A DNA stretch of 47,312 bases from Nitrospinota bacterium. Its GTDB lineage: Bacteria > UBA8248. The DNA is taken from the NCBI GenBank assembly GCA_030754595.1, contig JASLZZ010000114.1, forward strand, positions 1 through 47,312, written 5' to 3'. Numbering within the stretch: the first letter of the stretch is position 1; each line of letters starts with the position of its first letter. Made by a program: the position numbers. Shown piece after piece: positions 3,001-6,000 of the stretch.

Positions 3001-6000
3001 CACACCGGCGATCTCTACGTCAAGGAAATCCCCCCCGCGCGGGGGAATTTGGAGGTCGTCGTCTTCCTGTTCGACACCCCGGCCGACCCGGACAGGTACG
3101 CCTGGCGGACGATGTGGTTCGCCGAGCACGACGAGGAGTCCACCCTCTGCATGTACGCCACCCCCTTCGAGGAGAACGTCATCGGCCCCGGCGTCGCGCA
3201 GTCCACCTACGGCGGGGCGTTTTTCATCTTCCCTCCGCGTTTCATCGACGATGTCTGGCGCGACCCGCGCTTTGATTACGCGAGGACGCTCGAGGAGCGC
3301 CTCATCGCCGGCGCCTGTTTTCACTCGCGCGAGCGCGTCGTCGCCCTCGTCAACCCCGGCCCCCCCCCGGCGAGCTGGCGGCGGATCGCCCGGCTCAACC
3401 GCAAGCATCTGGTCCACATCCCCCTCGGGCGCTTTTCGCGCGAGACCGTCGAGCGCATCCGGCGCTTTCACGTCCTGAACGGCCGGGAGGTCCGCTCCTA
3501 CGCCTCCAGGTTCATTCAGGACGTATGAGGGGCCGCGTCTCGTGAAACCGATAGCGCTGGATAACATCTCCGGCCTTAAAAACCGCTTCAACGCGGACCG
3601 GGGCCGCCCGCGCCTGATCGTCATCTTCTCGCCCACCTGAGGCCTCTGCCTCGAGGGCGCCCGTTGGGTTGACCGAAACATCTTGAAAAACGGCGCGGGC
3701 TCTGAACTCAAGGTCTACGCCGTCTGGGTCAGGCGGCTCAAAAGAGACGCCCCGGGCCACATCGACCCCGCCATATTCGGTCACCCGGCGGCGAGCGTAT
3801 TCTGGGACGGGGACCAGATCGCCGGAAAATTTTTCGCCGCCGCCGAGGGGTTTCACTCCCCCGTCGCTTGGGATTCCTATTATCTCTACGGCCCCAAGGT
3901 CCGCTGGCGGGCGATGGCCGCGCCGATCACGGCCTCGGGTTTTCCGGTCATGAATTTCCGGCGGGATTTGAGGCGGTTCGTGCGGGGGATGGCGGAGGGG
4001 TGATTAGAGATAGTCAAGAGCTGAGGTGATGCAGTCTGTGATAGAGTGTATCGGTCAAGACTTTTTCGCTTCGATAGATAATCAGGGTGATTGAATTCGA
4101 TAGGAGCTTTTCAAATGACCATAGACGAGTTAACCACCCGGTTTCCGGAGATTCCGGCGGATTTGAAGGATGAACCCCTGCTGGCGGAATTCGCCGAGGC
4201 GTTCGGGCCTCAACTGGCGATAGCCGAAAAGCCCGTCGCCTGCACCGTCGAGCAGTCGGCGGGCAACGCGTTTTACATGAAGCTGATCAACCTGATCGGA
4301 ATCTACGCGATCGGGCTCGCGAAGCGGGAGGCGGTGCTCGGCCAGATACAGGCGCTAGTGGAGGGTTTCAGGGCCGACCCCGAGGGCTATGCCGCCTCGC
4401 TGCTTCCCGGGAGCGTTTCTCCCGTGCAGGTGCGGGGTCACGGCTGCGAATAGCAGACGTTTGACTGAAAAAAGGGATGGCCTCGGGCTGCCCCTTTTTT
4501 GGGCTGTCCCTTTTTTTTGCGCGGACCCCCGGTCGGGGGCGGACTCAGCCGCCGTAGAAAACGGTGTCGCCCAGATCCTTGAGCCATAGGGTGGCGTCGT
4601 CGGCCCGGCCCTCGGGCTCTGTTCTGACGCCGGCGCCGGTCACCTCGCCGACGAAGATGGAGTGATCTCCGTTCTCGACGGTCTCGGCCAGTTTGCACTC
4701 CACCCAGGCCGAGCAGGAAAGAAGAAGCGGCGCGCCCGCAGGGCCCTTTTCGAAGGCCTCGCCGCCGATGCTGTCGCCATCGCGCTCAAGGGGCTTGAAG
4801 AAGGTGAAGGCCGCGCCCTGCTGGTCCTTGCCGAGGAAGTTGAGGGCGAAGACGCCGGCTTCCTTGATGGTGGCGTGAACGCCTGAGTCGGCCTTCACCC
4901 CGAGGGCGACGAGTGGAGGGGCGAAGGAGGCCTGGGTCGCCCAGTTGACGGTGGCGGCTGCGACGGCGCCATCCCCGCCCTCGGCGGTGAGGACGTAGAG
5001 ACCGTAGGGGATCATCCTGAGAGCGGTTTTCTTCGCGGCATCGTCCACGATTGCGACTCCTCTTTTTCGGTAAAGTGCAGGAAAAATCGAAACCGGATCG
5101 TTTTTTTTGGGGCGGGCCTACGATACCCGTTTTTCGGGCGCCGATCCATTCATCGCGCGCGGGCGCTCCGCGCCGGGACGGAGTAACCCTGTTCGGGCAC
5201 GGATTGCTCCCCCCGGCACGGATTGCCCTGTCAGACAGGCGGTGCGAAAATCCGGGCACGCGAAAATCGCGGGGGAGTTAGAAAGGGGACTTTCGGTGGC
5301 CAGAGCGCACGAGATACCAAGACGGCTCCTTGTCGCGGTCGGCGGCAACGCCACTCACCCGCCCGAGATCAAGGGGACGGCCGGGGAGCAGGCGGCCATC
5401 GCCGCTGCGACGGGCAGGGCGCTGCTCCCGCTGATGGCGTGCGACACCGAACTCATCGTCACCCACGGGAACGGCCCGGTGGTCGGGAAGATTCTGATGC
5501 GCCAGGCGCTCTCGGGGGCGCGGGTGACGCCGATGACGCTCGATATATGCGTCGCCCACAGCCAGGGAGGAATTGCCTACTTGCTCATGCAGGCGTTCGA
5601 GAACGCGTTGCGCGAGGCGGGGAACGCGAGGCACGTGGTCTGCCTGCTCACCCAGGTCGAGGTGGACTCCGATGACCCGGCCTTCGGGAATCCCGAGAAG
5701 TTCGTTGGCTACGCCTACAGTGAGGAGGAGGCGCGCGCCTTCGAGCGCGAGATGGGCTGGACGATGCGGGAGGATCCGGGCCGGGGCTGGCGCCATGTGG
5801 TGCCCTCGCCCGAGCCGAGGCACATCGTCGATATTTCGCTGATCCGGGCGCTGGCCGAGCGCGGGGCGGTGGTCATCGCGGGCGGAGGCGGGGGGATTCC
5901 GGTCGCCCGCGAGGGGAGCGGGATGCGCCGCGGGGTCGAGGCGGTGATCGACAAGGACTTGACCTCGGCGCTGATGGCGAACGTCCTGGGGATCGAGGAT

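Follow-up and report, generated by a model that had tools for sequence, protein, structure and literature searches.

The window analysed here, the whole of contig JASLZZ010000114.1 (47,312 nucleotides) of a Nitrospinota bacterium (assembly GCA_030754595.1), carries on its forward strand a single frame of 153 codons, which begins with GTG at 3542, ends with a TGA stop at 4001-4003 and contains a further, in-frame TGA in the context LIVIFSPT-U-GLC-LEG, where U stands for selenocysteine (Sec) (Table 1). The table 11 gene call begins 47 codons downstream of this GTG. The first-pass annotation had proposed the 153-aa frame with a start 47 codons upstream of the called ORF and a UGA at codon 33, which is borne out by sequence and translation, and it had given the upstream extension a coding GC3 of 0.81, which we reproduced: by codon position the GC content is 0.60/0.47/0.81 in the 47-codon extension and 0.61/0.51/0.81 in the remainder of the gene. 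The position of the start is kept, with GTG in genomes G000, G003 and G004 and ATG in G002. No signal peptide and no membrane helix was found in the 153-aa product.

Table 1. Features at the selenoprotein locus, in coordinates of the window
Feature	Position	Strand	Evidence
AAA_5 (MoxR/CbbQ-type) ATPase gene, upstream in the same gene string	550..1524	+	Pfam PF07728, E 3.2e-18; syntenic in L009, L012 and L016
666-aa gene without family match; 13 nt separate its end from the Sec gene	1528..3528	+	Pfam and NCBIfam 0 matches
Shine-Dalgarno-like GAGGGG (putative function)	3528..3533	+	read from sequence; 8 nt before GTG; overlapping with the 666-aa gene's stop
Full selenoprotein CDS	3542..4003	+	translation; conserved start; equal pN/pS on both sides of the TGA
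In-frame TGA, Sec33, first residue of UxxC	3638..3640	+	TGA in 19 further full-length loci and in 20/20 fetched Acidobacteriota loci; Cys in 75 Cys-form domain hits
TGC, Cys36, resolving/partner cysteine of UxxC	3647..3649	+	invariant in 45/45 family sequences covering the position
Position of the family's SECIS-like hairpin	3657..3671	+	alignment A3 pair counts; synonymous-site conservation; window fold
106-aa ORF reported by gene callers, TTG start	3683..4003	+	table 11 call; identical to cluster P0003
120-aa gene, downstream, without family match; likely true start ATG 4115	4091..4453	+	syntenic; sole part under metatranscriptome contigs

Compared with G002, pN/pS is 0.33 for codons 2-32 and 0.32 for codons 34-150; the comparison with G004 gives 0.24 and 0.29, respectively. 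The values before and after the TGA are similar: purifying selection acts alike on the codons 5' and 3' of it, which goes beyond chance. A near-identical 153-aa variant on record (P0174) has Cys-Cys at positions 33-34. Metatranscriptome contigs from four RNA runs, searched over the region 3300-4500, cover only 4189-4500, in the downstream gene. The Sec gene itself is left uncovered, and on its expression they are uninformative.

Four of the five genomes of the genus (G000, G004, G002 and G003) contain the gene. The orthologue in G004 is 90% identical and that in G002 67%; G000, G004 and G002 each have one in-frame TGA, and the copy of G003 is divided over two contig ends with the TGA on the 5' piece, so that the reported conservation of the TGA in the genus stands, with three complete orthologues and one split one. 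A profile search of the phylum (51 genomes) found the gene in five; G006, which this search adds to the four above, has a TAA in place of the Sec codon. In G001 the Sec gene is missing between the same neighbours and in L014-L016 it is broken. Absent or decayed in close relatives, the Sec gene is dispensable. Genomes with a lost or broken Sec gene still have an intact 666-aa gene. The order AAA_5 ATPase, 666-aa gene, Sec gene and 120-aa gene is kept in L009, L012, L013, L014 and L016, which upholds the synteny noted before. Neither the AAA_5 ATPase nor the other two neighbours, which belong to no known family, offer a redox partner; inspection of the 666-aa and 120-aa genes for redox motifs revealed nothing telling, and the Atlas gave only a weak lead from the 666-aa gene to DUF5682.

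The genome encodes SelA, SelB and tRNA-Sec, and its selD has one in-frame TGA (Sec-type SelD); in-frame TGAs are also present in eight AhpC-TSA matches. Bacterial SECIS elements have their loop 16-37 nt from the UGA, with a G early in the loop. In the window the hairpin behind the UGA has only 4 pairs (3659-3662 with 3666-3669; G.U, C-G, C-G, C-G) around a GUU loop (3663-3665), because Val43 is encoded by GTT and Asp44 by GAC; it is the weakest of the family's hairpins, and other selenoprotein genes of this genome have stronger ones. Over alignment A3, 96.7% of the cells of this hairpin type are paired, and one compensatory pair consists of two synonymous changes. Of the codons within it, Gly39 is GGC in 19 of 20 sequences and Ala40 is GCC in all 18, with third-position entropies of 0.29 and 0, respectively, as compared to 1.1-1.7 for other Gly and Ala codons. 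A second hairpin type has 8 bp and is 93.8% paired, with 3 pairs and 8 cells changed on both sides; its observed score was reached by none of 500 shuffles. In the Acidobacteriota loci checked (n = 20) a hairpin with compensatory changes follows SPT-U-xxC, and one paralogue has a hairpin at the same site in a different register. A search of Rfam with positions 3000-4600 (E<=10) yielded chance-level matches only, none of them to a SECIS family. An RNAalifold structure calculated on A3 (-6.4 kcal/mol, no compensatory pairs), which differs from the hairpin of the single folds, was weak and was set aside in favour of that hairpin. At the level of the family, Sec decoding is thus documented; UGA33 of the window gene itself is probably decoded as Sec by the genome's own SelA, SelB, SelD and tRNA-Sec.

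The first-pass annotation had described the gene as an orphan of narrow distribution, restricted to one genus and a few metagenome clusters, with homologues that all appeared to be Sec forms. None of this held. An exhaustive profile search returned 3001 representatives with an E of 1e-3 or lower, 1051 of them with 1e-10 or lower, and the best 150 of the 3001 included 75 domain hits with Cys at the Sec column, to which the Cys-Cys variant P0174 is to be added. A further 72 domain hits among these 150 are without the Sec column, most of them beginning after it. In a sample of 301 Acidobacteriota species genomes the family occurs in 51, with 68 matches, 50 of which have one in-frame TGA; in all 20 loci fetched from this phylum the TGA lies at SPT-U-xxC, and in 20 full-length loci it lies at one common alignment column. 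Two other observations of the annotation were confirmed: database homologues of the called ORF form 7 clusters of 106-117 aa restricted to the part after the TGA, and neither Pfam nor NCBIfam has a match (0 at E<=1) to the window protein.

The family is large, is without a curated name and is found in many soil and marine bacteria in both Cys and Sec forms. Its signature is SPT-[U/C]-x-x-C-x-x-G-A ... W ... D ... W-D ... W-D-x-Y-x-L ... W, with W62, D69, W88-D89, W110-D111 and W122 as the invariant W/D set; at two positions that the family keeps well, the window protein deviates from the consensus (H in place of D81, A in place of R83). Most members have a membrane anchor or a lipoprotein signal (lipobox). 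Pfam and NCBIfam also lack a model for five further Sec relatives and 14 single-domain Cys relatives, a profile search of PDB sequences reached a best E of 0.66, and tblastn of PLSDB plasmids with the Cys form P0013 gave no match. A protein that from its sequence alone seemed to combine the domain with a CcdA/DsbD-like membrane domain (P0046) had 0 Pfam matches at E<=1 and was dropped. In a rough FastTree of 47 domain sequences Sec and Cys forms are interspersed; because the alignment was imprecisely trimmed and the tree has no support values, it carries no inference on the order or direction of Sec/Cys change.

An AlphaFold (AF2) model built with a 20-sequence alignment has a pLDDT of 88.7 and a pTM of 0.88. 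It places a strand at 24-29, a helix at 34-48 and a strand at 57-63, with U33 and C36 at the N-terminus of helix 1 (which starts at residue 34), in agreement with the strand/UxxC/helix arrangement of thioredoxin type suggested before. In VIA the model matched TlpA-, DsbE-, CcmG-, ResA- and DipZ-like chains with Z 13.0-11.3 and an rmsd of 2.6-3.3 Å over 120-129 residues, and in Foldseek the E values ranged from 1.3e-5 (best) to 1e-3 at TM 0.45-0.57. The model is a confident one and confirms a thioredoxin fold, closest to the TlpA/DsbE/CcmG/ResA/DipZ type and with TlpA-type additions. With the extracytoplasmic thiol-disulfide reductases TlpA, DsbE (CcmG), ResA and DipZ-C the family shares the fold and its extra elements, the [C/U]xxC at the start of helix 1 and, in most members, the signal anchor or lipobox. 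It differs from them in that the window copy is without an anchor and that the family has a W/D set of its own. The conserved cis-Pro may be lacking as well: before strand 4 there is no invariant Pro in 47 sequences, W110-D111 being invariant there instead. A relation at the sequence level is also lacking, the window protein having no match at E<=1 to PF08534, PF00578, PF13905, PF00085, PF13098 and others, and hhalign against the genome's own Redoxin/AhpC-TSA proteins giving a probability of 2.2%. The caveat of the annotation, that a known Trx-like family might include the protein as a highly diverged member, thus applies to the fold and fails for the sequence.

On balance we consider it probable that the gene is a genuine Sec gene whose product, of 153 residues and presumably cytoplasmic, is a thiol/selenol-disulfide oxidoreductase with a thioredoxin fold of TlpA/DsbE/ResA type. 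In the catalytic cycle envisaged, the selenolate of Sec33 would attack an oxidised thiol or the disulfide of a substrate, Cys36 would resolve the intermediate with formation of an Se-S bond, and this bond would be recycled by a thiol or flavoprotein disulfide-reductase system. Chelation of a soft metal by the same Se/S pair would be equally possible. Points that weigh against the preferred reading are the short hairpin of the window and its absence from the Rfam and RNAalifold results, the two deviations from the consensus, the dispensability of the gene, the lack of a redox partner among its neighbours and the presence of W110-D111 where a cis-Pro would be expected.

Several other explanations were weighed against this oxidoreductase. 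That the TGA terminates translation, so that one deals with a decaying gene or with a 32-aa peptide and a 106-aa ORF, would be in line with the splitting of the frame by the gene callers, the weak hairpin in the window and the decay seen in relatives; we regard it as highly improbable, since pN/pS is the same before and after the TGA, 20 + 20 loci of distantly related taxa all have their TGA in a single column, Cys forms carry their Cys at this very column, the hairpin covaries, and the genome has a complete Sec machinery along with many further Sec genes. The 106-aa product would, moreover, be devoid of the active site and of strand 1 of the fold. The conserved TGA and the purifying selection on both of its sides instead support the earlier assignment as a genuine UxxC selenoprotein gene. 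Very unlikely, if somewhat less so, is a thiol/selenol peroxidase of GPx or Prx type, with Sec33 as the residue that would reduce peroxides and Cys36 as the one to resolve the selenenic acid. Glutathione peroxidase is likewise a thioredoxin-fold selenoenzyme. The Foldseek matches include poplar GPX5 and human GPX8 (E 4e-4 to 8e-4), the GPx of S. mansoni matches at Z 10.2, and the invariant W110-D111 directly before strand 4 is at what we take to be the site of W-N in GPx. However, PF00255 and PF00578 have no match at E<=1, the motif is UxxC rather than UxxT or TxxU, the PxxxTxxC/U motif of Prx is absent, and the TlpA-, DsbE- and ResA-like chains rank higher (Z 11-13). Less improbable, though still unlikely, is that the family is already catalogued as a selenoprotein family under another name, for example as "thiol-disulfide isomerase-like protein" or another cd02966/TlpA-like entry, and lacks only the annotation. 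The TlpA-like fold speaks for this, as does Table 1 of a 2026 review, where some UxxC families are defined solely by CDD cd02966. The known UxxC selenoproteins with a thioredoxin fold (Sec-Trx, Prx-like thiol:disulfide oxidoreductase, thiol:disulfide interchange protein, DsbA-like, DsbG-like, Redoxin and SaoT) resemble the family in the UxxC, the Cys homologues, the database truncation at the UGA and the SECIS hairpin within the coding region. Against a family already catalogued, all other families listed in that table have a Pfam or NCBIfam model, none of which matches the window protein, the five Sec or the 14 Cys relatives, and the hhalign probability is low. For the family that it describes, a 2005 paper speaks of Cys homologues "widespread" among the genomes completed by then, which suits ordinary TlpA-like proteins better than the window family.

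A reading that deserves more weight, although we still hold it to be doubtful, is that Sec33 and Cys36 capture a soft metal, Hg(II) and perhaps Cu(I), as a linear Se-metal-S complex and hand it on to a partner. The domain would on this view be a counterpart of NmerA or MerP built on a thioredoxin fold, and Sec would raise its affinity for the metal. Like NmerA and MerP the family has a two-ligand site of CxxC type, and some relatives occupy the same architectural places. In P0138 the domain, cut at the Sec position, precedes a MerA with the MerA-type CC pair at its end (TIGR02053, 516.7 bits at a cut-off of 454.45), and in P0102 it follows MerT-MerP (NF033556, 175.3 bits, just below the cut-off of 180). 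P0064 combines an HMA/MerP-like domain with the family domain, P0018 and P0035 combine two copies of it with HMA, and P0147 joins a DF-family (seleno)protein and a MerT-like part to the domain. In a soil locus (L031) a gene for a MerR-family regulator is followed by a cytoplasmic Sec paralogue, a 170-aa gene (without a family match of its own and with a tblastn match only in L024), MerA (501.7 bits at a cut-off of 454.45; a core without NmerA) and a membrane-anchored Sec paralogue. Four other soil loci (L017, L018, L029 and L032) have between the two paralogues a 2Fe-2S protein of the type of the CopZ N-terminus (NF047645, 101.4 bits at a cut-off of 100 for the copy of L018, which was scored); MerA was not found in these four by tblastn. 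In fold the two differ, NmerA and MerP having the ferredoxin-like HMA fold and the family a thioredoxin fold. What speaks against the metal is that linkage to a mer system (merA, merT, merP, merR) is seen for some relatives only: near the window gene there is no mer or cop gene, and the best matches in its genome stay below the cut-offs (355 versus 454 bits for MerA, 31.7 versus 32.9 for MerT). MerA is present in none of 12 Acidobacteriota neighbourhoods, in one of which a glutathione-reductase-like flavoprotein adjoins the gene and in one a CDF cation exporter. The soil operons, because their contigs are closely related, amount to few independent observations, and the fusion to a flavoprotein disulfide reductase suits a pure electron relay too.

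The selenol-thiol oxidoreductase remains the preferred reading for the window protein. For the family as a whole we put forward, as a tentative proposal of rather low probability, that it is an unrecognised widespread thioredoxin-fold [C/U]xxC family, mostly in its Sec form in Acidobacteriota, whose ancestral or main role would be the capture of Hg(II) or another soft metal and its delivery to MerA-type flavoproteins and MerT-type transporters, as a thioredoxin-fold equivalent of NmerA and MerP with selenium in place of sulfur providing for tighter mercury binding; the Nitrospinota copy, cytoplasmic and without an anchor, would be a side branch of it. In the parts of the literature searched, which include parts of a survey of mer systems (PMC8261052), there is no description of a thioredoxin-like mer-associated family.

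For annotation, one miscalled gene in a Nitrospinota genome is hereby corrected, and the family profile together with the SECIS pattern can be used to correct many others. The family is common, and thousands of its database entries are cut at the UGA. If the interpretation is right, it would add a selenoprotein family that Pfam and NCBIfam miss and that, judged by domain identifiers alone, would also be new to the 2026 catalogue of prokaryotic selenoproteins. The natural fusions with MerA, MerT-MerP and HMA would then also provide a testable link between the use of selenium and the handling of mercury and other soft metals.

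The window gene appears from its sequence to be a real selenoprotein gene, well supported at the family level and only moderately by its own SECIS; its product, a [C/U]xxC protein with a thioredoxin fold, belongs to a large family absent from the curated libraries. The 153-residue frame with a TGA at codon 33, put forward in the first-pass annotation, was confirmed by the sequence, the translation and the pN/pS ratios. GAGGGG lies 8 nt 5' of the start codon, the upstream gene of 666 residues ends 13 nt 5' of it, and the GC contents of the three codon positions in the 47-codon extension (0.60/0.47/0.81) follow the pattern of the remainder of the gene. 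Compared with the orthologue in G002, a genome of the same genus, codons 2-32 have a pN/pS of 0.33 and codons 34-150 one of 0.32; compared with that in G004 the ratio was 0.24 before and 0.29 after the TGA. The protein sequence is therefore equally constrained on both sides of the TGA. The product of the TTG ORF is identical to a database cluster (P0003), and the 32-residue N-terminal piece is on record as a separately called gene. That the TGA is not decoded, a reading in line with these separate calls, is a minor alternative beside the shared constraint. A database protein in the cluster of P0003 (P0174), also of 153 residues, almost matches the window protein, the differences being Cys-Cys for U-G at positions 33-34 and M for V at the start; judged by its protein record, it would be a natural Cys variant of the gene.

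Features of the selenoprotein locus and of a further TGA-containing gene in the window
Feature	Position	Strand	Remarks
Selenoprotein CDS	3542-4003	+	single frame, 153 codons, GTG start
In-frame TGA, codon 33	3638-3640	+	motif ...RLIVIFSPT-U-GLC-LEGARWV...
Stop codon of CDS	4001-4003	+	read from sequence
TTG ORF, 106 aa	3683-4003	+	sole ORF listed at the locus under table 11
Redoxin/AhpC-TSA-type gene	28137-28550	-	one in-frame TGA (...MWTFS-U-INC...), sequence context

SelB, SelA and tRNA-Sec were found in the genome, and selD contains an in-frame TGA of its own. Eight AhpC-TSA matches have an in-frame TGA, and the one inside the window is probably a second selenoprotein gene there. The other seven AhpC-TSA/Redoxin-type genes and selD are found on contigs C16, C65, C17, C109, C43 and C110 (L041, L051-L058), and C109:8334-8717 carries two in-frame TGA, arranged U-P-Y-U. 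The genome thus has a large selenoproteome. A 2026 database paper counts Nitrospinota (UBA8248) genomes, at 48-54 selenoprotein genes, with those that have the richest selenoproteomes in bacteria (PMC13326102).

The gene had been regarded as an orphan whose homologues were all Sec forms. Pattern scans of metagenome contigs and genome contigs yielded 29 and 3 loci, respectively, and full-length relatives with 32-45% identity were found in metagenomes of soil and sediment as well as in a Pyrinomonadaceae MAG, with the TGA at the same column in a motif SPT-U-xxC-LAGARWV. Of 25 full-length loci inspected, 24 have TGA and one (L034) TGG; most encode a membrane helix of about 35 residues at the N-terminus, and two a lipobox. 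A profile built from 20 of these loci (alignment A2) and run against 1.84 billion representatives retrieved 3001 proteins (E<=1e-3), 1051 of them with E<=1e-10 and 65 with E<=1e-30, so that the gene is no orphan. In the best 150 of the 3001 proteins (153 domain hits) the Sec column is occupied by Cys (CxxC) in 75, which together with P0174 contradicts the view that all homologues are Sec forms. The column is uncovered in 72 hits, most of which begin just 3' of it, as expected of miscalled Sec forms, and holds W in 2, G in 1, S in 2 and R in 1; W and G may be TGA translated with other genetic codes. What did stand was the absence of Pfam and NCBIfam matches, found likewise for five further Sec relatives and 14 single-domain Cys relatives.

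Within the Acidobacteriota (NCBI taxonomy), the phylum of the Pyrinomonadaceae MAG, the family occurs in 51 of 301 sampled species genomes (E<=1e-8), with 68 matches; 50 of these contain a single in-frame TGA, and the other 18 lack one. Three of the genomes (G075, G100, G203) are unpublished and hold 5 matches, all with TGA; minus these the counts are 48 of 298 genomes and TGA in 45 of 63 matches. In all 20 loci checked out of these 45 the TGA is exactly at SPT-U-xxC.

In the nucleotide alignment of 20 loci (A3) a hairpin (G-C-G-C-C-C / G-G-G-U-G-C, loop G-K-Y) starts 16 nt 3' of the UGA; 96.7% of its cells are paired, and one sequence has changed C-G to U-A via two synonymous changes. Its score was reached by 17 of 500 shuffles, a modest result because the stem hardly varies. 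The synonymous sites give independent support: GGC encodes Gly39 in 19 of 20 sequences and GCC encodes Ala40 in 18 of 18, while other conserved Gly/Ala codons use three or four codons. A second subfamily (A5, 14 Acidobacteriota loci) has an 8-bp stem from 9 nt 3' of the UGA with a GGC or GGU loop, 93.8% of cells paired and both-side changes in 3 pairs and 8 cells; none of 500 shuffles reached its score, and slid controls were all far lower. A cytoplasmic paralogue retains a hairpin of 5 bp at the same position, in another register. The window's own hairpin is the weakest copy (G.U plus three C-G pairs, GUU loop), since Val43 is GTT and Asp44 GAC; other selenoprotein genes of the genome have stronger hairpins 9-25 nt 3' of the UGA. 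Rfam found no SECIS at the window gene.

The AlphaFold model built with A2 (pLDDT 88.7, pTM 0.88) comprises strand 24-29, helix 34-48, strands 57-63, 84-89 and 112-116, and a C-terminal helix. Foldseek gave 27 PDB matches at E<=1e-3, thioredoxin fold throughout (TM 0.45-0.57), including 2b5x, CcmG, DsbE and DsbF of M. tuberculosis, ResA, GPx, Prx and Sco. VIA-align against 48,161 chains put TlpA-, DsbE-, CcmG-, ResA- and DipZ-like chains at Z 13.0 to 11.3 (rmsd 2.6-3.3 A over 120-129 residues). A profile search of PDB sequences gave no link (best E 0.66), and hhalign of A2 with ten Redoxin/AhpC-TSA proteins of the genome gave a probability of 2.2%, though the CxxC motifs align. The signature of 47 Sec and Cys sequences reads F16-N17, R24, S30-P31-T32-[U/C]33-x-x-C36, G39-A40, W62, D69, D81, R83, W88-D89, G95, W110-D111, L115 and W122, from which the window protein departs with H81 and A83. 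In these sequences no invariant proline is seen at the place equivalent to the cis-Pro site of TlpA-type proteins.

Profile matches were obtained in 5 of 51 Nitrospinota genomes, four of them among the five of the genus: G000 (the window's own), G004 and G002 with the TGA, and G003 in two contig-end pieces, the 5' one with the TGA. G002 has an ATG start at the same codon and the motif U-TI-C, so that UxxC is kept while the x residues vary. In the remaining genome of the genus, G001, the 666- and 120-residue genes lie about 320 nt apart (L116, G001:C323), and the Sec gene is wholly missing between them. Related marine contigs L014, L015 and L016 keep TGA33 and have TGA for W42 and TAG for W88, and L016 is frameshifted as well. 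Since the upstream 666-residue gene is intact, these copies are pseudogenes. The only match beyond the genus, in G006 of another class, is an anchor-less paralogue with TAA at the Sec codon (L065, G006:C6:978101-978466), probably a dead gene. Missing or broken in these relatives, the gene is dispensable.

The window gene is preceded by an AAA_5 ATPase gene and the 666-residue gene, which belongs to no known family (weak lead to DUF5682), and followed by the 120-residue gene, also of no known family. A metatranscriptome contig (run X20) over the latter skips 83 bases at window 4324-4408 and may represent a related strain that has lost these bases.

We lean towards a predicted function as a cytoplasmic selenol-thiol oxidoreductase. 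A peroxidase role is a minor alternative; GPx, Prx and plain thioredoxins scored Z about 10 in VIA-align. The main rival, a hand-off of soft metals, is a rather unlikely one, and its leads come from relatives. In P0138 the family domain, truncated at the Sec position, precedes MerA (above the equivalog cut-off) ending in a MerA-type CC pair; in P0102 the family domain follows a MerT-MerP fusion (just below cut-off), P0064 has an HMA/MerP-like domain before the family domain, P0018 and P0035 have two family-domain copies plus HMA, and P0147 joins a DF-family (seleno)protein, a MerT-like part and the family domain. A YceI domain is joined to the family domain in P0057 and P0075. Three representatives (P0018, P0027 and P0147) combine the family domain with the recently named DF family (seleno)protein domain (NF049942).

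The soil operon on L031 (L031:659-4456) encodes a MerR-family regulator, an anchor-less Sec paralogue (MEIGT...LSPT-U-xPC), a 170-residue protein with no family match of its own, MerA and an anchored Sec paralogue. On L017, L018, L029 and L032 the genes of the regulator and the anchor-less paralogue are followed by those of a CopZ-N-terminal-type 2Fe-2S protein and then of the anchored paralogue, and tblastn found no MerA there; the arrangement is partly present (tblastn) in L019, L021, L022, L024, L025, L027, L030 and L040. Each of the five operons thus holds one anchor-less and one membrane-anchored Sec paralogue, but all these contigs are closely related and so count as few independent cases. 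Twelve Acidobacteriota neighbourhoods, none with MerA, speak against a metal role in general: a glutathione-reductase-like flavoprotein lies directly 3' in one, a CDF cation exporter is present in one and AtuA in two, and the remainder is unrelated. The window's own genome has no MerA above cut-off and a sub-threshold match to MerT.

In Table 1 of a 2026 review each family listed has an identifier from Pfam, NCBIfam, CDD or PANTHER (PMC13188914; compare the tables of PMC1088965), and our comparison covered the families with labels other than cd02966. Thioredoxin-fold UxxC selenoproteins are already familiar; the novelty would lie in a widely occurring family of this kind that is linked to the mer system by its domain architectures.
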